A stretch of DNA of 32,000 bases from Candidatus Saccharimonadota bacterium (GTDB lineage: Bacteria > Patescibacteriota > Gracilibacteria > UBA1369 > 2-02-FULL-48-14): contig CP064962.1 of NCBI GenBank assembly GCA_016699145.1, positions 1,020,001 through 1,052,000 of the forward strand, written 5' to 3'. Below are positions 3,564 through 32,000 of the stretch, one piece after another. The first letter of the stretch is position 1; every line of letters starts with the position of its first letter. The notes beneath the pieces were generated by a model. That model saw nothing but the letters and a program-made list of their open reading frames with translations. It was not told the DNA's origin and did no database searches. Both the position numbers and the translations under genes were made by a program.

Positions 3564-4521
3564 ACCCAAGGCCGCGCTCTTTTATTTGGGCTCTAAAAAC
3601 GGCATTGAAAAGACGCTCGTCGCTCAGGCAGAAATCCCTTACACGGCCATTAGCACTGGAAAAATGCGGCGTTATTTTGATTTGCAAAATTTCTTGGATC
3701 TTTTTCGCATTCCTTGGGGAGTGGTGGAGGCGTGGTGGAAGCTCGGCTCCCTGCATCCTGCGGTCTTATTCAGCAAAGGGGGCTTCGTCGCCTTCCCAGT
3801 GGTTTTAGCGGCTTGGCTCAGACGTGTGCCCATTGTGATCCACGATTCAGATGCGATTCCGGGGCTGGCCACTCGGCTTTCGGCACCCTTCGCTCAAAAA
3901 ATCATTTTGGCCCATGAAACAGCACACATGCATCTGACCGCTTACGAAAAAAAAATCGAAGTTGTGGGGAACCCTGTGCGACTTTCCCTTTACGAAGGCA
4001 GCATTAAAAAAGGACAAAAATGGACGGGCTTCACTGGCAAAAAACCCGTGCTGCTGGTGATGGGTGGAAGCAGCGGTTCGCAACAACTCAATACCTTGGT
4101 GGAAAAAGAAAAAAAACAATTATTGGAACATTTTGATGTGATCCACATCAGTGGGCAAACACGAAAGAAATTTCTTAAAGAAAAACATTGGATTGAATTT
4201 CCATACGTGGACAAAGGCATGAACGACCTCTACGCGCTCGCTTCGCTCGCGCTCACTCGTGCCGGCGCCAACACCCTGGCCGAATTGCATGCGCTTCAAA
4301 TTCCTGCTCTGCTTTACCCGCTGGGCCGGCACGCGAGTCGTGGCGATCAAATCGCCAACGCCCAGGTCATGTGTCTGGAATCAGAGCTCTTTCAAATCGC
4401 CGATGAAACAGAAGCAGCTCTGCCACAATTGCTCACCTTACCTCTTCGCCCCGCAAAACATGTGACGAGCACCGTCACCGAAAAAATCGCATGGCAACTC
4501 CTTTCTTATTTCCATGACTGA
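3472..4521 (+). CDS. murG: undecaprenyldiphospho-muramoylpentapeptide beta-N-acetylglucosaminyltransferase MurG
   Basis: N-terminal G-loop VLTGGGTAGHVIPNLAIADAI and C-terminal GGSSGSQQLN / TRAGANTLAEL motifs. I chose ATG 3472 (MQKTNIV...) rather than the ORF-track start at 3436. Confidence 0.9.
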   Translation: MQKTNIVLTGGGTAGHVIPNLAIADAIRAFEPKAALFYLGSKNGIEKTLVAQAEIPYTAISTGKMRRYFDLQNFLDLFRIPWGVVEAWWKLGSLHPAVLFSKGGFVAFPVVLAAWLRRVPIVIHDSDAIPGLATRLSAPFAQKIILAHETAHMHLTAYEKKIEVVGNPVRLSLYEGSIKKGQKWTGFTGKKPVLLVMGGSSGSQQLNTLVEKEKKQLLEHFDVIHISGQTRKKFLKEKHWIEFPYVDKGMNDLYALASLALTRAGANTLAELHALQIPALLYPLGRHASRGDQIANAQVMCLESELFQIADETEAALPQLLTLPLRPAKHVTSTVTEKIAWQLLSYFHD

Positions 4522-5668
4522 ATCGCATCCAACTCGTAAAAAAAAGACGAACCTTCGCCTCGGTTTTCAAGGCTGGTTCCTAACGCAGCCACACACTGGA
4601 ATTGGTCGGCATTGCAAGGGTCTCATTGAAGCCTTGCTCCGCCAAAAGATGCAGCTCACGGTCTTGCTTCCCAAAGCCTTGCCAGCAGCAGAACTCCAGA
4701 GCATGGGCCTAAAAAAAACACAAGTTCACGTCATAAAACCGCTCGCTTTTCTGCCTCATCTCGGCCTGAAAAAATGGTTTTGGGAAAAGGTGCAAGTGCC
4801 TGCTTTTTTCTTCCACCTCAATGTGGATTGGGAATATTATCCCTACCCGTGCCCTTTGCCAAACGTCAGTCCTCACCGCCGGGCGATGACCGTTCACGAT
4901 CTCATTTTGTGGAAAGATCCTCGCTATCAAGGCAATGCCCTGAAAAAAAAGTACCACCGTGAAGCCCGACGCACTCTCATTCACATGGATCAATTGTTCA
5001 GCGTCTCCAAGGCCACTCAGCATGAATTGGGCATCCCGGCAGCACTGCTTCTGCCCAATGCCGTAAAAATCCCTTCACCCGCTGCGCGGCCCTCAAAAAC
5101 CCAAAAGAAGCATAAAGATCTGGTTTATTTGGGCGGCTATGAATTGCGTAAACGCGTGCCTTTGCTGGTGGAACGCTTTTTGGAGTACCATAAAAAGCAT
5201 CCCGAATCTCGCCTGATTCTCGTTGGGGAGCCTCATCAAAAATCCAAACTGTATCCGGCTTTACCCAAGCATTCGGCATTGATTTCACTGGGCCCTAAAT
5301 CCGATGCCGAGGCCTTTCAATTGCTGCAAAATGCCTTTGCATTTGTACATGCTTCTGACAGTGAAGGTTTCAATTTGCCTTTACTCGAAGCCATGCTCGC
5401 CGGCACCCCGGCCGTGGTCACCGATTTGCCCGTGAACCGAGAAGTGTCCAAAGAAACGGCGCTGTTTTGGAATCCCTCGAAAAAAAACGCGTTAGACGCT
5501 ATACTGAAACCACTGGAAAACTCAGCTCAAAGACAAGCCCAAATCCATCGTCAAAAAAAAGCGGCTCAAACGTACTCTTGGGATCGCACCGCTCACCTTT
5601 TAATTCAAGCCTTAAGCTCGCATGAAAACTCCAAAAACACTGCGCTTTCCGGGACAAAAAAACAATGA
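4514..5668 (+). CDS. GT-B fold glycosyltransferase (family 1/GT4-like)
   Basis: C-terminal EGFNLPLLEAMLAGTPAVVTD signature region of GT4 enzymes. Start overlaps the murG stop by 8 nt. Confidence 0.8.
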   Translation: MTESHPTRKKKTNLRLGFQGWFLTQPHTGIGRHCKGLIEALLRQKMQLTVLLPKALPAAELQSMGLKKTQVHVIKPLAFLPHLGLKKWFWEKVQVPAFFFHLNVDWEYYPYPCPLPNVSPHRRAMTVHDLILWKDPRYQGNALKKKYHREARRTLIHMDQLFSVSKATQHELGIPAALLLPNAVKIPSPAARPSKTQKKHKDLVYLGGYELRKRVPLLVERFLEYHKKHPESRLILVGEPHQKSKLYPALPKHSALISLGPKSDAEAFQLLQNAFAFVHASDSEGFNLPLLEAMLAGTPAVVTDLPVNREVSKETALFWNPSKKNALDAILKPLENSAQRQAQIHRQKKAAQTYSWDRTAHLLIQALSSHENSKNTALSGTKKQ

Positions 5669-6158
5669 AAAAATCCAGTTGCTCGTGCGCAAACATTGGA
5701 TCATTGACGTAAAAATTTCGGCTATTTTTCTCATCATTGGAATTCTGCCTTTGCTCCTTGGAATTTGGTTTGGAGAAATCCTCTGGGCCTCCACTCATGG
5801 GACTGTTTTTTGGACTTATCTTTTAGTTTTTTTAGTTTACGCTTTATTCATTCTGCTTTTTGTTTACTTGCGTTGGCTGAATGAAGAATTGGACATTGTG
5901 ATTGTGACCAACGAACGCATCATTTCTCACAATCAAATCGATCTTTTTCATCGACAAATTTCAGAAGCTTTGGTCGAGGATATTCAAGACATCAAAGGCA
6001 TTGAACAGGGCCTACTAGGCCATCTCTTGCATTTTGGAGCCATGGAAATCACCACGTCTTCCAATCAACAATTTTTTGCCATCAAAAACATAGAGGATCC
6101 TCACGGCAACACTCGTGCTATGCTGGACGTGCGAGACCAATGCGCCATTCACTCCTAA
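5622..6158 (+). CDS. membrane protein with bacterial PH-like (bPH_2/YdbS-like) domain
   Basis: Two predicted TM helices (ISAIFLIIGILPLLLGIWF, FWTYLLVFLVYALFILLFVYL) followed by a VTNERII...G..L..G.MEITT pattern reminiscent of bPH_2. Overlaps the upstream gene by 47 nt. Confidence 0.5.
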   Translation: MKTPKTLRFPGQKNNEKIQLLVRKHWIIDVKISAIFLIIGILPLLLGIWFGEILWASTHGTVFWTYLLVFLVYALFILLFVYLRWLNEELDIVIVTNERIISHNQIDLFHRQISEALVEDIQDIKGIEQGLLGHLLHFGAMEITTSSNQQFFAIKNIEDPHGNTRAMLDVRDQCAIHS

Positions 6159-11739: not shown

Positions 11740-13191
11740 ATGTCCACCCAACTCAGCACTGAAAAATTGCCCAAAGGCCTCTTCCTCGCGAGCTTCATTC
11801 TGCTGGCGTGGCTGGCTGTTTTTGCCGTCGTGGTGCGGTGGAACGCCCTGCCCAATCTAGCCGAACTTTTGCCCAAAGAAGAAACCGAAGCCTTTTGGAT
11901 GCTCGAGCTAGACGACTTAAAAAAGTCGCAAATGACAAGTCCTGCGGCCTTCAATACTTTTTTGAACACTCCTCTAGAAAATCTGCCTTGGGTGAGTCGC
12001 GTAGGAGGGGCTTGGATGAAAAGTGGAGACCTTTCGATTGCAGAAGTGAACTCCAAAGCTGAGGCGCAGGATTTTTTGGAAAGCCTCAAAACTCCCGAAG
12101 AAGAATTTTTGAAAGAATCCTTGGATGGATCTTTATGGAGCACGGTCTATTGTTACAGTGAAACTCAACCCTATTGCTTCACCTGGGTCGGGGATTTGCT
12201 TTTCGTTGCCGATCAAAAAGAGCTGCTGATTTCAGTGCAAAAAACAGCCTTGGGTGAGCTAGAAAACCTGGAATCGGACGGAAAATATCAAAATGTTCGA
12301 GGCCGCTTGGCACACTGGAACGGGGGTTTTTACTACTTGGACCTGCAAAAAGTCAGTCGCCGTTTCATGGACGATTTTGGAGCTGCAGCTTCTCTTTTAC
12401 AACTTTTCCCATCCATGGGCGGAGCACTGGAGTACCCCAATGCCGAAAGCTTTTTGGCGGTGGACAAAACCTTATTGGGGGATCAAGTTTTTTACCGTCC
12501 TGAAGAAAGCTACCAAAAAAAATTCTTACCCTGGACTTCCAAAGAACTCGCCTGGGAATGGGGAGGACAAAATCTCTACGCCCAATGGAAGCGCATGGAA
12601 GAAATTTTAAGTGAAAACAGTCCCTCTGCCGGCATCGTTTGGCGAGCGGAAACCATGGCGCTTTTCACCCGCTGGTTTGGAGCGGATTTCAATTTTGAAA
12701 CGCAATTTGCTCCTTTTTTGGATAAAGAGCAGTATTTTGCATTCACCCCAAACGGACATTTCCTTTTCATTACGGAACTCGAAGCAGGGGAGGCCAAACA
12801 GTTGGATGAACTTAAAAATCAACTCATTTCTAAATTGCCCGAACAAGCAATACTGGAACAAGTGAAGAAAAACGACTCTTTAAGCTATGAGCTAAAAGTC
12901 GACGGGCAAGTGCAATTCACTTTCATGGTTTTAAACAACGCCTTTATCCTTTCTGACTCCCCTCAATTGGCTTTGTCTACACTGGACAGAGCCCTTGGAC
13001 AAGAAGAACCTCGCAATTTACAGGAGTTTTCAGACCTTTTATCAGGGGCCGACGAAGTCGTGATTCTGCATTGTCCACTCCTGCCCGATGGGAATATACT
13101 AAAGACCCTGGGAGGGAAGGAAAGCATCCTCTCAACGCGAAAACTCTTTGACGACGGAGTCTTCACTCGCACTCATTTCAGTCATGATTAG
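11740..13191 (+). CDS. membrane-anchored hypothetical protein (possibly DUF3352-like)
   Basis: 483-aa ORF with one N-terminal TM helix (LFLASFILLAWLAVFAVVV). The family assignment is a weak recollection only. Confidence 0.55.
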   Translation: MSTQLSTEKLPKGLFLASFILLAWLAVFAVVVRWNALPNLAELLPKEETEAFWMLELDDLKKSQMTSPAAFNTFLNTPLENLPWVSRVGGAWMKSGDLSIAEVNSKAEAQDFLESLKTPEEEFLKESLDGSLWSTVYCYSETQPYCFTWVGDLLFVADQKELLISVQKTALGELENLESDGKYQNVRGRLAHWNGGFYYLDLQKVSRRFMDDFGAAASLLQLFPSMGGALEYPNAESFLAVDKTLLGDQVFYRPEESYQKKFLPWTSKELAWEWGGQNLYAQWKRMEEILSENSPSAGIVWRAETMALFTRWFGADFNFETQFAPFLDKEQYFAFTPNGHFLFITELEAGEAKQLDELKNQLISKLPEQAILEQVKKNDSLSYELKVDGQVQFTFMVLNNAFILSDSPQLALSTLDRALGQEEPRNLQEFSDLLSGADEVVILHCPLLPDGNILKTLGGKESILSTRKLFDDGVFTRTHFSHD

Positions 13192-23019: not shown

Positions 23020-23088
23020 AACAGCCAGATTCATAGACATTGAATAAGGTGTTTGCTACAATCACCAAAACTTAACGACTTGCACGGC

Positions 23089-24117
23089 ATGTCCACCTCT
23101 ATTTCTGATTATACAATTGCCACCCTTGGAAGTCACACGGCCCTACAAATCCTAAAAGGGGCAAAAGACGAGGGCTTTAAAACGATGGCCATCATCACGC
23201 CCGAAACCAGACGCGTTTTCGAAAGTTTTCCAGTAGCCGACGAACTCATTGAAATTCCTAGTTTTGCCGATTATTTTCAAATTGAAGATCAACTCATTGC
23301 TAAAAATGCCATTGTGATTCCGCATGGGTCTTTTGTGAGCTATGTAGGAGTAGAAAATGTTGCAGCAAGAATGAAAGCGATGTACTACGGCTCCAGAGGA
23401 ATTTTACGTTGGGAGTCGGACCGCACCATGGAACGTGTATGGCTTAAAGATGCAGGTCTCAACCTGCCGAAAGTCTTCAAAACACCCGAAGAAATCGACC
23501 GTCCTGTGATTGTTAAATTTCACGGAGCCAAGGGAGGGTTCGGTTATTTTATTGCTAAATCTCCTGAAGAATTCCGGGAGCGCATCAAAGAATTTCCAGG
23601 AGAAAACGACTATGCCATCCAAGAGTACATTGTAGGAGTGCCCATGTATGTGCACTATTTCTATTCCCATTTGAACAATGAGCTAGAGATCATGAGTTTC
23701 GATAAACGTTACGAATCCAATGCCGACTCTATCGGGCGTATTGCAGCTAAAGACCAAATAGAAGCTGGAATCCGCACCAGCTAGACCATTACTGGAAACA
23801 TGCCCATCGTAGTGCGTGAATCCATGCTTCCCATGTTCTTCCGAATTGGCGAACAGGTCATCCAAAGTTCTCGAAAGCTAGAAGGAGCACCGAAAGGGCT
23901 CTTCGGTCCATTCTGTTTGGAAGGCATCATCGATCCCAACCTCCATTTCCGCGTCTTCGAAATTTCCGCCCGCATTGTGGCCGGAACCAATCCTTATATA
24001 GAAGGCTCCCCTTACACAGCGCTTCGCTATAAAGAGCCCATGTCCACGGGCCGCCGCCTGGCTCGTGAGCTCAAACAGGCTATAGAATCCGGTCGTTTGA
24101 CCGAGCTTTTGAGTTGA
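23089..24117 (+). pseudogene. purP: archaeal-type FAICAR synthetase PurP homologue interrupted by one in-frame TAG (23782-23784)
   Basis: IATLGSHTALQILKGAKDEGF, PHGSFVSY, ILRWESDR, VKFHGAKGGFGYF, FDKRYESN and PFCLEG motifs of PurP (ATP-grasp). ORFs 23089-23784 and 23800-24117 are in the same frame and are colinear across the stop with the paralogue at 25670-26872. Confidence 0.75.
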
Positions 24118-25669: not shown

Positions 25670-26872
25670 ATGCTGAACATTCCTGAAGTACTGGCCTCCT
25701 ACAACCTCAAAGAAATCACCATTGGTGTACTGGGGGGGCACAGCGCCCTGGAAGTATGTGAAGGGGCTAAAAAATTAGGATTTCAGACCCTCGTCGTAGC
25801 GCAAAAAGGACGCGAAAAGACTTATGAAAAATACTACCGCACTCGTACGCACGGGGCGCAGCAAAGTGCCAATCGAGAAGTGGGTTGCGTGGATCATCTC
25901 ATCACTCTCGATAAGTTCGCCGACATCGTAAAACCCGAAGTTCAAGAAGAACTCCGCGGCCGGAGCACGATCTTTGTACACAACCGTTATTTTTGGGTTT
26001 ACTGCGACTTCAACGCCATTGAAAACGACTTCAATGTGCCCATCTATGGCACTCGCCACCTTGTGCGTCTCGAAGAACGCGACCAACCGAACAATCAATA
26101 TGTACTCCTTGAAAAAGCTGGCATTCGTATTCCTAAAATCATACGCACCGGGGAGGCCACTGTGACTGGCGACGCACTCAAAACCGTACTCGACCAGCAT
26201 TTCGACACCAATAGAGGAGGGCCCATCATCGTGAAAGTGAACGAAGCAACCCGCACTTACGAACGCGCCTTCTTTGTGGCCGTCAGCACGGGTGACTTCG
26301 AAAAAAAATCCAAAGAAATGATTGCCAGCGGCAAAATCACGGAGGAAGGACTCAACAAAGCGGTGATTGAAGAATTCATCATCGGGGCTCAAGTGAATCT
26401 CAATTTTTTCTACTCACCCATCACGGGCGAACTCGAGTTGATGGGCACCGACATGCGTCGCCAAACCAGCCTCGATGGCTTTTTGCGCCTTAATGCCGAC
26501 GTCCAAAACGAACTGCTCAGTTCAGGCTACCAGTCCAGCATGGTGGAAACCGGACACGTTTCGGTGACCATGAAAGAATCCTTGCTCGAAAAAGCCTTCG
26601 ACATCGGGGAAAAATTTGTAAAAGCCTCTCAAGAAAATGCAGCCCCTGGCATACTCGGACCCTTCGCTTTGCAAGGGGCAGTCGCCGCCGAAAATGGACG
26701 TGAAGAATTTGTGATTTTTGATGTTTCCATGCGCATTCCCGGTTCACCTGGCACGCGTTTCACACCTTATACCAGTTACCTTTGGGGACGCTCCATGAGT
26801 TTTGGCGAACGCATCGCCCTCGACATCAAAGAAGCCCTCGACAGCGGACGACTGAGTGAGATTGTGACTTAA
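25670..26872 (+). CDS. PurP-family ATP-grasp protein (divergent FAICAR synthetase paralogue)
   Basis: 400-aa ORF colinear with the PurP homologue at 23089-24117 (GGHSALEV..GAKKLGF, YGTRHLVRLEERD, FFYSPITGELELMGTDMR, GPFALQG, IFDVSMRIPG, RIALDIKEALDSGRLSEI), with extra insertions. Confidence 0.8.
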   Translation: MLNIPEVLASYNLKEITIGVLGGHSALEVCEGAKKLGFQTLVVAQKGREKTYEKYYRTRTHGAQQSANREVGCVDHLITLDKFADIVKPEVQEELRGRSTIFVHNRYFWVYCDFNAIENDFNVPIYGTRHLVRLEERDQPNNQYVLLEKAGIRIPKIIRTGEATVTGDALKTVLDQHFDTNRGGPIIVKVNEATRTYERAFFVAVSTGDFEKKSKEMIASGKITEEGLNKAVIEEFIIGAQVNLNFFYSPITGELELMGTDMRRQTSLDGFLRLNADVQNELLSSGYQSSMVETGHVSVTMKESLLEKAFDIGEKFVKASQENAAPGILGPFALQGAVAAENGREEFVIFDVSMRIPGSPGTRFTPYTSYLWGRSMSFGERIALDIKEALDSGRLSEIVT

Positions 26873-27252
26873 GCGTTCAAGGCCCGTACCAAACGTTCGT
26901 CAAAAGTGAGCACTTTTGCTTCAAGATTTTTTGCTAAAACCAAAAGCGATATATCCACAAAAGAAAGTTTATGAGGTGAAAGTTCTTCAAAAAGAGCGAC
27001 ACTTTCTTCGAAATATTCTTCGTCCATTTTTAAAAGTTGAATTCCAGAATCTTCTGAAAGGAGGATCTCACTCAGTTGAATTGCCTCCTTCGAAGAAAAT
27101 CGTGACGTCATGAGTGTGAGTAGTTCTTGATACACTAAAAAAGAAACAAAATGAGGCTCTTCTGCACTAGATTTAAAAATATGACGCGCCTTTTTATGAA
27201 GAGAATCGACTGAATTGAAATAAGCGAAAATAAAAGAAGTATCAAGAATCAC
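26869..27252 (-). CDS. vapC: PIN-domain toxin (VapC-like)
   Basis: N-terminal ILDTSFIFAYF (first acidic PIN residue), SFVDISLLVLA and LTFDERL motifs. The GTG start overlaps the antitoxin stop (GTGA). Confidence 0.8.
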   Translation of the reverse strand: MILDTSFIFAYFNSVDSLHKKARHIFKSSAEEPHFVSFLVYQELLTLMTSRFSSKEAIQLSEILLSEDSGIQLLKMDEEYFEESVALFEELSPHKLSFVDISLLVLAKNLEAKVLTFDERLVRALNA

Positions 27253-27485
27253 CAGTCTTTTGGGTAAACAATTTCATCAATACGCTGTGAAATAGTAGGA
27301 TCATCACCCCAAGCAAAAGTAGGCATCTCAGCCAAGGATTTTCTTTTTTTCAATTGTTTTTTGACTTCCTTCTCAGTCAAATCTCGAATCCAAGCGGCCA
27401 TTGGTTTTTCTTCTTGAGCAGCCAAAACTTTGATCTGCATATAGAGCATTTTTGGAAAATAAACTTGTGCAGCCTGTTGTCGCAT
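27249..27485 (-). CDS. ribbon-helix-helix (CopG-like) antitoxin
   Basis: VYFPKMLYMQIKVLAAQEEKPMAAWIRDLTEKEV fits a beta-strand/helix/helix RHH layout. Start chosen at ATG 27485 (MRQQAAQ...). Coupled to the PIN gene. Confidence 0.6.
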   Translation of the reverse strand: MRQQAAQVYFPKMLYMQIKVLAAQEEKPMAAWIRDLTEKEVKKQLKKRKSLAEMPTFAWGDDPTISQRIDEIVYPKDW

Positions 27486-27564
27486 AAATACTGTTACATG
27501 TACAGTTAACAGTATAGATTGAAAGGCAATAAAAAACAAGCCTTTTTAAAACAACAATCCTCCC

Positions 27565-29808
27565 TTAAAGCAAAGGCATCTCAAAATCCGTGCTTTCTTC
27601 AATCACACTTTTGTTAACGGGAGCCATAGCATCCACCTCCCCGCCCTCGTCCCATTTTTTGAGTTGGTCTTCAACAACTTCACGCGACTGACAATAGGCG
27701 GCACGCGACGCTTCGATGATGGTGCGAGAGTGATCCACAGCACCGTATTGAATGTCCAAAGTTTTTCCAGAAAAAGCTTCGGTGAGCTCGCCATCGATGG
27801 ACATTTTTAAATAGAATTCACGCACGCCCAAATTGATGATGTCACGCACGCCAAATACAGGGGTATATTCACCTTCCAGCACGGCTGCATCCTCCGCCCC
27901 CACACGGAAACTGACCATGGAACCCACATTCCCGAATACCGTTTTTCGTACCTCTTCTTCAAGCTGCCCGATGTATTGATGGCCGATGGTTAAACACAGT
28001 CTATATTTACGTGCCTCCGACAAGATTTCTGCAAAAGTATCCGTCGCAAAATTCTGAAACTCATCCACATAAAAGTAAAAATCCTTACGATCTTCCTCAC
28101 GCATATCCGCACGGGCCATGGCCGCTTGATAAATTTTAGTGATGATCATGGAGCCAAGCAGCGCCGCATTTTCTTCACCCAAAAGTCCTTTAGAAACCTT
28201 CATGAGCAGAATTTTTTCGCCGTCCATAATGTCACGAAGATTGAAAGTATTTTTGGACTGCCCAATGATGTTTCGAATCATATTTGTAGACACGAGCTGG
28301 CCCACTTTATTGAGCAGAGGAGTGATGGCTTCGGCATCAAATTTTTCACTCCAACCAGCGAATTCATTCACCCAAAAGTTTTTCACCACACTGTCTTCAA
28401 TACGAGCCACAATTTTTTGTCGATAATTTTTATCGGAGAGCATTTTCAAAATGGACAGCACAGTCGTATTCGGCGAATCCAAAAGCGCCAAAGTCGTATA
28501 ACGCAGCACATGCTCCAAGCGATTGGACCAATTGGAGCCGAACAATTTTTTGAAAATATCAATGAAACCAATCGTGATTTGCATTTTGAATTTTTCATCC
28601 ACTTTTTCAAGCGGATTGAACGCAATGGGGAACTCGGTGTCTGCAGGATCAAAGTAAATCACATCCTTTATGCGATGCTCTGGGATGAAGCGCAAAATGT
28701 TGTCCACCAGATCACCGTGGGGGTCTAAAATGCCCACACCTTTGCCTGCCTCAATGTCGCTTTTGATCAAAAGTTCCAGCAGTTTGGACTTACCGGTACC
28801 GCTCTTTCCCACGGCATAAAGATGACGCCTTCGGTCCGCCCGCTTAATGCCAAAATTTTGAAAATTATTGTGATAATTCGTGGTTCCAAAAAAAGAAACA
28901 TCTTCTCGTGTGCTAGTGGGCAAGTCTTTCGGCGGTTCATGTTTTTTAGCCAAAATATGCACCACGTGTGGCACATGATCGGAGTTGGGGAAATGGTACA
29001 AAGTTGCAAGTTCATCCACACTCACAATCATCGGTTTTACAAAATGACGAGCCGTATATTCGCGTAAAAAAGCAGCCCCTCGACGAGGTCGTTCCAGCAT
29101 GAATTGATTGCGATCCGTTTTGTTGAATTGAAAAAACGCTTTCGAAAGCGCGGCCAAGTTTCTTTCAGCTTCAGAAACACTATCCGCCACCGCCCCAATA
29201 CGAATTTCAATCTCAAAAGGTTCATGTTCGCTCTTGTGCACAAAGTCGGCACTTTCTTCAGTATAAAAGGTCTTTTTATCTTTGAGACGTACATAATTTT
29301 TAAGCCTAAAACTGCGTCCCATCGAATTGAGCCGCATTTGCACTCGACGTCCAAAATGGTATTGCCAATCTTCTTCACGGGGCGAAATTAAAATTTGAAT
29401 CCACGCTTGATCATTACGGCCAAGTTTAGAAATCACCGAGAAAAGCCCGGACAAAGAATCGAGCTCAAAATCTTTGAATGTTTTGATGGGATAAATATCG
29501 CTTTTCCCAAAGCCCAGCCGCGTGCCCACGAGGTGTTGCTTTTGAGAATCATAAAAATGAGTGTAATCCTTCATTGGGCGGATCTCGCTATTGGGGAAGA
29601 TGGAATAAATGAGTCCTTCCACGAGTTTAGTCAAACTGGGTTCGCAGCCCACGAAAAAGTAGGTGTACTGACCATAACCAAAGAGTTCCAGCGACAAATG
29701 CTTGTGGTGCGCCGTATTGTGAAGATTTTCTAAAAGTTGAAGAAAAAGCTGCTCTTTTTTTGCATTTTCAGGCGTACCTTGCTCCAGAATGACTTGTAGA
29801 AATTCCAT
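27565..29808 (-). CDS. soluble P-loop ATPase of the VirD4/TraD (type IV coupling protein)-HerA/FtsK clade with an unassigned N-terminal domain
   Basis: Walker A AVGKSGTGKS (nt 28786-28809), ILDPHGDL, Walker B FYFYVDEFQNF and ARKYRLCLTIGHQYIGQL (TraG/TraD C-terminal-like). Residues 1-~330 match nothing I recognise. No TM helices. Confidence 0.8.
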   Translation of the reverse strand: MEFLQVILEQGTPENAKKEQLFLQLLENLHNTAHHKHLSLELFGYGQYTYFFVGCEPSLTKLVEGLIYSIFPNSEIRPMKDYTHFYDSQKQHLVGTRLGFGKSDIYPIKTFKDFELDSLSGLFSVISKLGRNDQAWIQILISPREEDWQYHFGRRVQMRLNSMGRSFRLKNYVRLKDKKTFYTEESADFVHKSEHEPFEIEIRIGAVADSVSEAERNLAALSKAFFQFNKTDRNQFMLERPRRGAAFLREYTARHFVKPMIVSVDELATLYHFPNSDHVPHVVHILAKKHEPPKDLPTSTREDVSFFGTTNYHNNFQNFGIKRADRRRHLYAVGKSGTGKSKLLELLIKSDIEAGKGVGILDPHGDLVDNILRFIPEHRIKDVIYFDPADTEFPIAFNPLEKVDEKFKMQITIGFIDIFKKLFGSNWSNRLEHVLRYTTLALLDSPNTTVLSILKMLSDKNYRQKIVARIEDSVVKNFWVNEFAGWSEKFDAEAITPLLNKVGQLVSTNMIRNIIGQSKNTFNLRDIMDGEKILLMKVSKGLLGEENAALLGSMIITKIYQAAMARADMREEDRKDFYFYVDEFQNFATDTFAEILSEARKYRLCLTIGHQYIGQLEEEVRKTVFGNVGSMVSFRVGAEDAAVLEGEYTPVFGVRDIINLGVREFYLKMSIDGELTEAFSGKTLDIQYGAVDHSRTIIEASRAAYCQSREVVEDQLKKWDEGGEVDAMAPVNKSVIEESTDFEMPLL

Positions 29809-29820
29809 AGATTAATTATA

Positions 29821-30612
29821 TCAGATTTGACCTGAAAAACAAAGCTCTGACAGAGGGGCTGGTGATACTTTTTGAAGAGCTTTGGGAGAGTCCACACTTA
29901 AATATTCTTCTTTGGAATAAGCTTGGTTAAAGATATGGAATTCCTTTTGTTGAAGGTTCACACATCCAAAACAATTCTTGCATCCCGTACAATTTTTAAG
30001 AAATGCGCTGTCAAAACAATTCGTACAATCCTGACTGTATTTTAAATTATAACAATTTTGACAATCCACACATTGATAAAGCAATTCAGATTGCAAAACA
30101 TAGGAGCAGTCCACGCAAGATCGGGAGTGTTTAATGACATTTCCATAAAGACAATCTTCATTGAAATCAGAATCAAAAACCAAGTAGCAGTTTTTGTTAT
30201 TCCCTGCATAGTTCGTGTAAACACAATTCATCTCAACAATATCACTCGCAGACACTACGTGAGGAAGAGGCACTTGCCGTAGAAGTTCATCGAATTGTTC
30301 AAAAAAAGGTCGATTGAAATCGAAGTCTTTCCCATACGAAAGAGGATCCCAACGATCGCCCCACCACTCTTTTTGATCGTAGACCTTATAAGGTTTTTCA
30401 GGTGAAATATTTGAAATAAGTTCACGTCCCGTCAGATCACATTTACGATGGTAAAGATTGCGTTCATTACGAAAAATCATTCGTCGTCTCATGCGTTCTT
30501 CGGGGCATAAGGTGGGTAAAGGCACATCTATCTTGGCATAAAAAGCCTGATCTTCATCAGTGATGATAAAGGGTTTCGTACTAACCCGACAAATTTTTTC
30601 TAATGCAGTCAT
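29821..30612 (-). CDS. Cys-rich repeat protein, paralogue A (degenerate zinc-ribbon-like N-terminus + one Cys module)
   Basis: 263 aa from ATG 30612 (ATGA overlap with the upstream stop). N-terminal F.I...D..FY.K...P.P..CP..R..RR...RN...LY.RKC pattern, WWGDRWD...FDFNRPFFEQF linker, then 14 Cys in ~100 aa. Confidence 0.7.
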   Translation of the reverse strand: MTALEKICRVSTKPFIITDEDQAFYAKIDVPLPTLCPEERMRRRMIFRNERNLYHRKCDLTGRELISNISPEKPYKVYDQKEWWGDRWDPLSYGKDFDFNRPFFEQFDELLRQVPLPHVVSASDIVEMNCVYTNYAGNNKNCYLVFDSDFNEDCLYGNVIKHSRSCVDCSYVLQSELLYQCVDCQNCYNLKYSQDCTNCFDSAFLKNCTGCKNCFGCVNLQQKEFHIFNQAYSKEEYLSVDSPKALQKVSPAPLSELCFSGQI

Positions 30613-32000
30613 GAATGAAAAAGTTGAGTGTAACAATGATTGCAATAAACTTGCTCGTCCTTCTCAAAAGGCACACGAATCCCTTGCTTGCAGTGTATGC
30701 AATTTCGGTCCCACAGTCGCCTTGGATTTCTCAACTTCAACCGATCCAAATAACGTTGTTGAGGGGCCCGTCTCGGCAGTGCAAGCCCCAGACTTTTATA
30801 AAGGGTCAGTTCTTGAGGGATGATCTTATAAAGCTTTCCTGAAACCTCGCATTTCAAGATTTGTTTACTGAAATCTTCAGGCACATCTTGAATGGAATCA
30901 GGGATAGTTATAAAAGCCCCCTGATAGTTGTCCTCAGGCTTTTCATCAATCCAATTGTATCCTCTGGCCTTTGCCTCCTCAGCAGTCAGCGGGAAGTATT
31001 CTTGTGCCAGTGTTTCATTGTAAGCGAAGGGGCTCAGCGTGGCTGGAAAAAACTCACCCCATTCACCCGTCTTTTTCATCTGATCAATGATTTGTGCTTT
31101 CAACGTTTCAAACTCCTCTTTGGAATATTCTGTATTGAGAATACAGTACTCACTTCGGTGAACTCCCACACAAGCAAAAAGATTTTTGCTGCTTTGGCAT
31201 AAATCTACATAAAGGCTGTCGCTCACATCGTAAGACACGTTTCCGAATTGAATATTCACACTTCGATTGCATCCATGACAGTTGTATTGAAGTTCACAAG
31301 CAAAGGCAGATTCATAAGTATCAAAACAGTCTTTGGCATAGCCTGTTTCATAGCAATAACGACAATCTTGCGAATAAATAACGTCGAAAGAATCAAAAAC
31401 GTTTTTAGACTGATAAATGCAATCTCCCGTACAATTTTCACTGATCAAAATAACAGATTGTTTCGGCGACTTTTGAATCATATTTTCGTACTCGTCCACG
31501 AAGTGTCGCAATTGTGCATAGGACCCCAAATTCACAGTTTTCATAAAGGCTTCATACTCTTCTTTAGTGAGTTGCTTGTTATAAACGCAGTAACTTTTTC
31601 GAATGAGGCCATTGCACATGAAAGAGTCGCTACAGTTGTAGCAGTTGTAAAGAAAAGCAGAATTAGAATTGTTGTCTGAAAGGAAATTATAGAAAGAGTG
31701 ATAGCCTCCGACCACATACTGACATTCGTAACACAGCTCACTTTTTTCAATATTGTAAGAGTCCGCGCAGTCTTTATTTTGAATCATCCATTTGGAATAA
31801 TAGACATTTTCGCAATAAGAAGAATCCACACATAAATAGCAGTTCCGATTGTTCTCTGCATGGTTGGTGTAGTCACAATTTTCACTGTTTTTTTGGACCA
31901 AAGCCAAGCGAGGAACTTTCAATTGCAGTTCTTTCAACTGTTCAAAAAAAGGACGCGAAAAATCAAAAGCTTTTCCAAATATTTTTGCATCCCATTTGTC
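30609..32000 (-). CDS. Cys-rich repeat protein, paralogue B (5' end beyond window; two Cys modules + C-terminal zinc-ribbon-like segment)
   Basis: The frame stays open to nt 32000 (DKWDAKIFGKAFDFSRPFFEQ precedes the ORF-track TTG start at 31937). Cys modules at ~31554-31889 and ~31113-31445. WGEFFPATLSPFAYNETLAQEYFP segment. C-terminal CIHC...CNHC. Confidence 0.7.
   Translation of the reverse strand, partial: DKWDAKIFGKAFDFSRPFFEQLKELQLKVPRLALVQKNSENCDYTNHAENNRNCYLCVDSSYCENVYYSKWMIQNKDCADSYNIEKSELCYECQYVVGGYHSFYNFLSDNNSNSAFLYNCYNCSDSFMCNGLIRKSYCVYNKQLTKEEYEAFMKTVNLGSYAQLRHFVDEYENMIQKSPKQSVILISENCTGDCIYQSKNVFDSFDVIYSQDCRYCYETGYAKDCFDTYESAFACELQYNCHGCNRSVNIQFGNVSYDVSDSLYVDLCQSSKNLFACVGVHRSEYCILNTEYSKEEFETLKAQIIDQMKKTGEWGEFFPATLSPFAYNETLAQEYFPLTAEEAKARGYNWIDEKPEDNYQGAFITIPDSIQDVPEDFSKQILKCEVSGKLYKIIPQELTLYKSLGLALPRRAPQQRYLDRLKLRNPRRLWDRNCIHCKQGIRVPFEKDEQVYCNHCYTQLFHS

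Follow-up and report, generated by a model that had tools for sequence, protein, structure and literature searches.

Type VII secretion loci encode the FtsK-like ATPase EssC/EccC together with adjacent arrays of WXG, LXG, or PE-PPE substrates. Related motors that have lost their usual genomic company are common in Patescibacteria: a 2025 paper counts 5,713 VirD4-like homologues of type IV coupling proteins (T4CPs) in 2,918 genomes, only 148 of which lie near virB4, and its authors raise the possibility that the orphan homologues were exapted, leaving their role open (PMC12102498). Here we analyse a stretch of 32,000 nt from Candidatus Saccharimonadota bacterium (contig CP064962.1, positions 1,020,001 to 1,052,000; hereafter the window), whose end carries, on the minus strand, two genes for cysteine-rich (Cys-rich) proteins followed by the gene of an ATPase that probably belongs to the same gene population. 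The region is the downstream end of a chromosomal module conserved across the candidate phyla radiation (CPR)/Patescibacteria, which comprises a tandem array of Cys-rich genes (two to at least 11) and a terminal gene for an ATPase with a DUF8128 domain, often accompanied by a TrmB-like regulator. The window holds the ATPase gene and the last two genes of the array, one cut by the window edge and the other truncated by a deletion.

A module conserved across the CPR

Two sets of loci were compared. For the Cys-rich-seeded set, one genome per GTDB species was searched; more than 550 relatives were obtained and the best 77 loci were used, almost all of which are labelled as CPR lineages. The ATPase-seeded set consists of 80 loci from metagenome contigs and was seeded independently of the Cys-rich family. 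In the 77 loci, the Cys-rich genes form co-oriented tandem arrays with a period of ~1.65-1.75 kb, reaching 11 copies in 21 kb. Of the 40 arrays whose downstream sequence extends for at least 3 kb, 16 are directly followed by a co-oriented ATPase gene. Seen from the other side, a co-oriented Cys-rich gene precedes 26 of the 39 testable ATPases (full-length, with 2.5 kb or more of upstream sequence) and lies within 1 kb in 20 cases; six of the 13 ATPases with no such gene are distant (35-42% identity). Conserved synteny between the two families had been set beforehand as the test of a first-pass annotation of the window, which had proposed that they form a system, and the result was positive across many CPR lineages.

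The recurring map consists of a divergent TrmB-like gene, then n Cys-rich genes, and then the ATPase gene. Among the neighbours, the TrmB-like regulator recurs most often (53 genes in 44 loci). It stands divergently at the heads of arrays and sometimes within them, and none is encoded inside the window. Representative genes are as follows.

Locus L001, 197-976 and 7739-8497, minus strand: TrmB-family helix-turn-helix regulators of ~250 aa
Locus L122, 7342-8109, minus strand: TrmB-family helix-turn-helix regulator of ~250 aa

On contigs of Parcubacteria, Nomurabacteria, and Saccharibacteria type, an ATPase of ~485 aa is encoded beside or inside the arrays, upstream in some and downstream in others; the linkage between the Cys-rich genes and the ATPase thus survives changes in gene order. 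The paralogues of an array are 39-47% identical to one another. When L001 was compared with L022, a clear counterpart was found for only two of the six array copies, and the ATPases of these two loci are each ~75-80% identical to that of the window. The picture is one of a fast-turning-over array beside a near-frozen motor. Copy counts are unreliable in three metagenome loci with ATPases of ~50% identity (L116, L124, and L127), where the Cys-rich open reading frames (ORFs) read as pieces of ~310-350 aa under genetic code 11, a likely consequence of UGA recoding (code 25) in their lineage. When the sequences of family ORFs exceeding 600 aa were inspected, most had the appearance of artefacts caused by alternative start codons further upstream.

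It is quite improbable that this neighbourhood reflects nothing but gene order inherited in one part of the CPR tree. Such an explanation would accommodate the many arrays and solo copies that have no ATPase nearby, the ATPases that have no array, and the PurP and SLH genes that are also conserved neighbours in Peribacteria with no obvious functional tie. However, the adjacency spans deep CPR groups (Peribacteria, Gracilibacteria, Parcubacteria-like, Nomurabacteria, and Saccharibacteria contigs), it is kept whether DUF8128 is fused or split and whether the ATPase is upstream or downstream, and a zinc-finger domain is common to an ATPase paralogue and the array proteins.

The first-pass annotation had described five tightly packed, co-oriented minus-strand genes at the window end, and all five were located in the ORF table and in the sequence where it had placed them. 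Those that belong to the module are listed here with their parts.

30609-32000, continuing past the window end, minus strand: Cys-rich B (open frame; family-profile hmmsearch, E = 5.5e-134)
29821-30612, minus strand: Cys-rich A (263 aa; deletion-truncated family member)
29809-29927, minus strand: deletion junction and 12-nt spacer (blastn against L001)
27565-29808, minus strand: ATPase, whole gene (747 aa)
28909-29808, minus strand: ATPase N-terminal domain, residues 1-300 (DUF8128, PF26449, in homologues)
27565-28908, minus strand: ATPase motor domain, residues 301-747 (VirD4/VirB4/HerA-type P-loop NTPase by Pfam and Foldseek)

The spacings reported earlier are exact: the ATGA overlap of Cys-rich A and B at 30609-30612, the 12 nt between Cys-rich A and the ATPase gene (29809-29820), and the 79-nt gap from the ATPase gene to vapB (27486-27564, given the vapB ATG at 27485).

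The motor ATPase and the Cys-rich proteins

The Walker A (GKSGTGKS, 28786-28809), Walker B (FYFYVDEFQ, 28054-28080), and HQY..QL (GHQYIGQL, 27961-27984) motifs that had been attributed to the ATPase are all present in the sequence. Over residues ~320-640, the protein matches the Pfam models T4SS-DNA_transf (36.6 bits), TrwB_AAD_bind (35.7 bits), and TraG-D_C (25.5 bits), all above their cut-offs, which are about 20 bits for the first two. The best of the NCBIfam T4CP models, conju_CD1115, scores 46.7 bits against a cut-off of 250, and the VirB4 Pfam model (CagE_TrbE_VirB) gave no match. The AlphaFold2 (AF2) model of the ATPase has a predicted local distance difference test (pLDDT) value of 77 overall and of 85-97 over residues 1-270. 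Its N-terminus forms a confidently modelled, soluble α/β domain, and an all-helical region is inserted at about residues 405-530, where the pLDDT is 55-75. In Foldseek searches with this model, the best whole-length match was TrwK/VirB4 of R388 (E = 4e-14, but with a TM-score of 0.32), and the best compact match was TrwB (E = 1e-10, TMt 0.61), followed by HerA, Cag-β, and DotL. A scan with a 19-aa window and a Kyte-Doolittle threshold of 1.6 found no transmembrane segment, in agreement with the earlier remark that the N-terminal anchor is missing. The above-cut-off Pfam matches and the Foldseek results bear out the earlier assignment to the VirD4/TraD-type P-loop ATPases. Homologues with 60-86% identity over their full length are found in Peregrinibacteria, Gracilibacteria, and other Patescibacteria, and an alignment of 49 of them contains hundreds of invariant columns. 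Based on its placement by Pfam, homologues, and Foldseek, the ATPase is a deep member of the VirD4/VirB4 motor clade that carries a soluble N-domain of a novel kind.

The ATPase ends in an acidic, disordered tail with the sequence FEMPLL (residues 742-747, window 27568-27585; motif F-E-x-P-L-[LI]), in which Phe742 and Pro745 are invariant in the 49 homologues. By analogy, the motif appears to resemble a short docking peptide; the tail of TraD, which binds TraM, offers a parallel.

The N-termini of the 60-86%-identical homologues and of protein P0124 in L159 carry a precomputed PF26449 (DUF8128) assignment; local Pfam scans returned no PF26449 match, also not for a homologue with the precomputed one. 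In Parcubacteria-like loci (L035, L144, L145, and L149), DUF8128 is a separate protein of ~450 aa that aligns with the N-domain of the ATPase. The stand-alone proteins of L035, L144, and L145 have N-terminal transmembrane helices, and that of L149 has none by the same scan. In L035 and L145, the DUF8128 gene is followed by a gene for a helical protein of ~170 aa with a single transmembrane segment, and then by the ~485-aa ATPase and Cys-rich genes; coding sequence homologous to the ~170-aa protein is also present in L140 and L143. The split DUF8128 regions are as follows.

L035, 6642-8513: split DUF8128 region
L145, 1295-3162: split DUF8128 region
L144, 2865-4235: split DUF8128 region

L144 also encodes a second T4CP-like ATPase paralogue (4228-5985, plus strand; 585 aa), whose C-terminal zf_Tbcl_2 finger (48.6 bits) is of the same kind as the C-termini of the Cys-rich proteins. 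Upstream of the split DUF8128 gene, both L035 and L144 encode SecD/SecF and a Sigma70_r4 and HARE-HTH protein. DUF8128 was also considered as a candidate for the TrsD/VirB4-N-like protein, which is reported to be unlinked from VirB4 in Gracilibacteria (PMC12102498). This identity found no support: hhalign with TrsD of pSK41 gave a probability of 0.4%, and no PDB sequence was matched by the N-domain profile. The hhalign match between the ATPase and TrsE of pSK41 covers the Walker A region only.

A profile search of 1.84 billion cluster representatives yielded 5,575 members of the Cys-rich family (50%-identity clusters), of which 2,317 have E <= 1e-30. No Pfam or NCBIfam model covers the core of the family, which had already been called unannotated, and only the C-terminal treble-clef finger scores, below threshold. 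The members are typically 545-565 aa long, and in 287 full-length sequences the order is a zinc-ribbon module, WWSDxWD, an FDFxRPFFEQ helix, Cys-rich domains 1 and 2, a strongly conserved linker (TGEWGEFFP..SPFxYNET), and a second zinc-ribbon module ending in VYCExCY. The four Cys residues of the C-terminal finger, a predicted zinc finger, are 97-99% conserved. Each protein contains ~37 Cys residues, arranged in ladders of period 12 and in CxxCxxCxxC runs. Neither a transmembrane nor a signal-peptide-like segment was found in the 287 members. The body is acidic (-6), the termini are basic (+3 and +5), and treble-clef zinc ribbons with Arg-rich helices are located at both ends. The AF2 model is β-rich and repetitive (pLDDT 62-77 in the repeat regions) and has no significant match among PDB or viral structures. 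No copy of the family was found in PLSDB, INPHARED, or IMG/VR. Rare members are extended: P0244 (731 aa) has an N-terminal GNAT acetyltransferase fused to it, as judged by Pfam, and P0333 (808 aa) has a C-terminal extension of ~230 aa, which is winged-helix-like by eye only and has no Pfam match.

The frame of Cys-rich B is open to base 32000, where it already aligns to the conserved DxWD...FDFxRPFFEQ region; therefore, the first ~100 residues are encoded past the window end, and the TTG at 31937 that was listed as the start is an artefact. The window holds the C-terminal 463 aa of this protein (typical family length, ~555 aa), with two Cys-rich, β-rich repeat domains, the TGEWGEFFP..SPFAYNET linker, and a C-terminal zinc-ribbon module (CxxC-x15-CxxC), whose CIHC-x15-CNHC sequence scores 21.2 bits against zf_Tbcl_2 (PF23477, TIGR04272), under the cut-off of 27. 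The pLDDT of its AF2 model is 79. Cys-rich A is 100% identical to NCBI IPG41_05870, a hypothetical protein of Candidatus Peregrinibacteria. The two proteins had been described as a tandem pair of paralogues. Their paralogy is supported by BLASTP (36% identity, E = 2e-19), and the C-terminal zinc-ribbon module of Cys-rich B is homologous to the N-terminal one of Cys-rich A (E = 8e-8); rather than a pair, they are the last two copies of an array that has 2-11 genes in relatives.

Cys-rich A retains only a partly degenerate N-terminal zinc-ribbon module and the first Cys-rich domain. The last array gene of L001 encodes 563 aa, and Cys-rich A shares 74% identity with the N-terminal 237 of them; the counterparts of Cys-rich A in L001 and L022 are 556-563 aa long. 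By blastn, window 30616-29927 corresponds to L001 10242-10931 and window 29820-27565 to L001 12609-14864, so that ~107 nt of the window (29927-29820) replace ~1.68 kb of L001 (10931-12609). Cys-rich A is truncated by a ~1.57-kb deletion relative to L001, which took away the second repeat domain together with the C-terminal zinc ribbon and the spacer between the genes, and its last ~26 residues are novel sequence past the deletion junction. The 12-nt spacing to the ATPase gene is therefore a deletion scar, a by-product, and the translational coupling previously read from it is not ancestral; in relatives, the gap between the last Cys-rich gene and the ATPase gene is usually 33-125 nt, with a maximum of ~900 nt.

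The VapBC pair and the chromosomal setting

Downstream of the ATPase gene, the window contains a toxin-antitoxin pair.

27486-27564, minus strand: ATPase-vapB intergenic region, holding a 28-bp near-palindrome at 27488-27515
27249-27485, minus strand: VapB-like ribbon-helix-helix (RHH) antitoxin (78 aa; weak RHH_5 match; outside the conserved module)
26869-27252, minus strand: VapC PIN-domain toxin (127 aa; Pfam PIN; outside the conserved module)

In the RHH-PIN pair named by the first-pass annotation, the PIN assignment is firm (57.7 bits, E = 2.2e-15), with acidic residues D4, E43, D100, and D118 present, whereas the RHH assignment draws on a sub-threshold Pfam match (E = 0.033) and the gene arrangement. 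The vapB gene starts with the ATG at 27485, the longer TTG ORF to 27539 being unlikely, and it overlaps the PIN gene by GTGA (4 nt). The near-palindrome at 27488-27515 (ATACTGTTACATGT / ACAGTTAACAGTAT) is located 3 nt upstream of the vapB ATG and is, judging from its sequence, a candidate VapB autoregulatory operator; if it is an operator, the pair would have its own promoter. With its PIN protein carrying four acidic residues, a small overlapping RHH-like gene, and a palindrome, the pair resembles type II VapBC toxin-antitoxin systems. Its GC content is 0.36, compared with 0.48 for the rest of the window.

The tight packing and co-orientation of the window genes had suggested a defence or mobile-element module of five genes, with VapBC working alongside the ATPase and the two Cys-rich proteins, and a homologous VapBC pair (RHH 51%, PIN 45% identity) is also present in L159 (1850-2459, plus strand). 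That pair, however, lies inside the Cys-rich array, ~8 kb upstream of the ATPase, and VapBC stands beside the ATPase in none of the other 158 related loci. In L022, the ATPase gene and the convergent PurP gene are only 28 nt apart with no toxin-antitoxin pair between them. Considering also the operator-like site and the deviant GC content of the window pair, a five-gene unit is very improbable. VapBC is an ordinary lineage-specific toxin-antitoxin add-on between the ATPase and convergent PurP genes, outside the conserved module, and the pair elsewhere in the L159 array suggests that such pairs visit the locus sporadically. L159, the closest context-resolved relative, has two small ORFs (82 and 80 aa) directly downstream of its ATPase gene.

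Beyond VapBC, the locus is flanked by genes for PurP, an SLH protein, and PurP, and then for PurH, MutL, AlaRS, and FtsW. The PurP/SLH flank is shared by the syntenic relatives L001, L022, and L159 (ATPases ~75-84% identical), whose upstream 10-12 kb contain only further Cys-rich genes and TrmB regulators. No type IV secretion system (T4SS), relaxase, or integrase gene was found in the window, in the syntenic relatives, or among the recurrent neighbour families, and the absence of VirB4, VirB6, and relaxase genes noted earlier for the window extends to the syntenic regions of its close relatives. It is hardly conceivable that the window ends in a fragment of an integrative and conjugative element with T4SS and relaxase genes just past base 32000. 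The only points in favour of such an element are the similarities of the ATPase to VirD4-type Pfam and NCBIfam models, and they stand against the gene content upstream of the array in the three relatives, the lack of T4SS, relaxase, or integrase families among recurrent neighbours, the housekeeping flank, a T4CP score of 46.7 against 250, and the missing transmembrane anchor. The conserved chromosomal flank equally argues against a typical defence island. The earlier defence-island or mobile-element framing is not supported, since the module occupies a conserved chromosomal site by PurP and SLH genes and the family is not in plasmid, phage, or IMG/VR collections; the locus is a chromosomal housekeeping context, neither an integrative and conjugative element nor a known defence island.

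In a PADLOC search, proposed as a check of the defence reading, the ATPase matches mad8 (E = 1e-9) and weakly HerA, only at a generic P-loop level, and the Cys-rich proteins match nothing. Membership of the MADS system was rejected, because the mad8 match (PADLOC-DB v2) covers the P-loop region only and there are no other mad genes. The GC content of window 27000-32000 is 0.38-0.43, compared with 0.45-0.53 upstream, and the arrays are GC-poorer than their flanks in 47 of 55 loci, although slightly (0.422 vs. 0.444). Low GC content was rejected as a mark of foreign origin, because the difference between arrays and flanks is small and may result from biased amino-acid composition; the outlier is VapBC, at 0.36.

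Elsewhere in the window, one PurP copy (25670-26872) is intact. A second PurP paralogue (23053-24117, plus strand; DUF1246 and DUF1297) has an in-frame TAG at 23782-23784, with the same frame resuming at 23800; pseudogenization, a split gene, or an error in sequencing could account for this. Two plus-strand ORFs (26-2275, 749 aa; 11740-13191, 483 aa) have no Pfam match at E <= 1e-5. Scans of the window for tRNA genes, Rfam families, promoters, and terminators gave nothing informative.

Possible function and relation to known systems

We regard it as a serious possibility, falling only a little short of probable, that the ATPase handles the array proteins as clients, which it would translocate, deliver, or assemble, most plausibly at the membrane. 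The ATPase would then be an exapted motor rather than a conjugative coupling protein. It may recognize its clients by their basic zinc-ribbon end modules and/or by the invariant TGEWGEFFP linker, using its DUF8128 domain or its conserved acidic C-terminal tail, and ATP would drive their translocation, delivery, or assembly, probably at the cytoplasmic membrane. FtsK/VirD4-class ATPases of type IV and type VII secretion, which handle signal-less substrates encoded alongside them, would provide a parallel. An array that diversifies rapidly beside a near-frozen ATPase agrees with a single constant machine that serves many variable clients. The Cys-rich proteins have client-like features, in that they combine a lack of signal peptides and transmembrane segments with basic termini on an acidic body and a conserved linker, and the membrane-anchored DUF8128 proteins and the ~170-aa transmembrane protein of other lineages point to the membrane.

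Several observations weigh against this proposal. Of the 40 arrays, 24 have no ATPase within 3 kb downstream, and solo Cys-rich genes also occur; in addition, seven closer ATPases (57-62% identity) have no Cys-rich neighbours. The fused ATPase of the window has no transmembrane segment, and no membrane partner is visible. Zinc ribbons at two ends, ~37 Cys residues, and fusions to GNAT and, by eye, winged-helix domains are more typical of cytoplasmic than of exported proteins. The fold class of the Cys-rich proteins is uncertain, given the moderate confidence of the model and the lack of a PDB match, and a physical contact between the ATPase and its putative clients is hypothetical. Furthermore, the t4cp homologue of Southlakia is reported not to be essential for epibiotic growth (PMC12102498).

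Some of these features would suit an intracellular nucleic-acid machine, in which the ATPase would be a DNA or RNA translocase (TrwB, FtsK, or HerA-like) and the Cys-rich proteins its adaptors or sensors; possible roles include the processing of imported DNA, chromosome handling, and an undescribed form of immunity with a diversified sensor array. We consider such a machine, the main rival of the client reading, unlikely. The likeness of the motor to TrwB_AAD_bind and HerA-type proteins agrees with it, as do the treble-clef zinc ribbons with Arg-rich helices at both protein ends, the fusions to cytoplasmic-type domains (GNAT by Pfam, winged-helix-like by eye only), the absence of export signals in the Cys-rich family and of a membrane anchor in the fused ATPase, and the weak similarity to the mad8 ATPase in PADLOC; fast diversification of the array is what a repertoire of sensors might show. 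However, the module has no conserved nuclease, methylase, or other effector, PADLOC is empty for the Cys-rich proteins and its mad8 match is only at P-loop level, and the stable chromosomal position is not a defence-island context. The membrane-anchored DUF8128 proteins and 170-aa partners found elsewhere point to the membrane instead, and a defence system with as many as 11 paralogous sensors of 555 aa would have no precedent.

The client reading can be extended, more doubtfully, to a dedicated and undescribed CPR pathway, in which DUF8128 and a VirD4/VirB4-like motor, membrane-anchored in some lineages, with a TrmB-type regulator, would export, assemble, or otherwise process Cys-rich proteins used at the cell surface or in host contact. 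Such a pathway, if real, would account for the majority of the orphan coupling-protein genes, numbering thousands, in CPR/Patescibacteria and would amount to a new system of the secretion or assembly type. The analysis connects at least one major clade of orphan ATPases, which is extremely conserved, with candidate client proteins and a regulator, and it exposes a dark protein family with thousands of clusters and ~37 Cys residues per protein, for which neither a Pfam model nor a matching solved fold exists. A large part of bacterial diversity belongs to the Patescibacteria, whose host interaction is barely understood. Some cultivable Saccharibacteria appear to carry the split DUF8128/ATPase variant, in which the role of the orphan ATPases becomes experimentally approachable.

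Among described proteins, the type IV coupling proteins (VirD4/TrwB/TraD/TraG) share with the ATPase a P-loop motor of the same clade, with Pfam scores that exceed the gathering score. Superposition of the predicted fold on TrwB gives a TMt of ~0.6, and both have a helical insertion that separates the two Walker motifs as well as an acidic, conserved tail at the C-terminus. Coupling proteins of T4SS effector systems are, moreover, receptors for signal-less substrates. In contrast to them, the ATPase has a 300-aa domain, assigned to DUF8128 through its homologues, in place of the N-terminal membrane anchor, no T4SS channel or relaxase genes nearby, and NCBIfam scores 5- to 20-fold under the equivalog cut-offs, which denotes a remote similarity; it is vertically inherited, occupies a fixed place on the chromosome, and retains 60-86% identity across CPR classes. 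A coupling protein with no transmembrane segment is known in TraJ of pIP501.

VirB4/TrwK is the best whole-length Foldseek match (E = 4e-14, ~850 aligned columns), and it resembles the ATPase in its size (~750-800 aa) and in its soluble two-part build of an N-terminal domain and a C-terminal motor. The TM-score is low (0.32), a CagE_TrbE_VirB match is absent, the DUF8128 profile has no detectable similarity to the VirB4-N-like TrsD of pSK41 (hhalign, 0.4%), and no VirB3, VirB6, or VirB8 partner adjoins the ATPase gene.

The resemblance to type VII secretion is one of logic and is drawn only as an analogy: a monoderm-type envelope, an ATPase of the FtsK/HerA superfamily, and fast-diversifying tandem paralogues without signals encoded alongside. 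The putative Cys-rich substrates, however, are large and carry zinc ribbons, and membrane components of EsaA/EssA/EssB type are absent.

Literature searches for DUF8128, for Cys-rich proteins of Peregrinibacteria and Patescibacteria, and for CPR T4CPs returned no description of the module, and term searches of the paper on orphan T4CP homologues found no DUF8128 fusion, Cys-rich arrays, or TrmB context (PMC12102498). The orphan T4CP-like motor is known, and what is new is the module that links such ATPases to DUF8128, Cys-rich arrays, and TrmB; there is a substantial chance that this module represents a new type of system.

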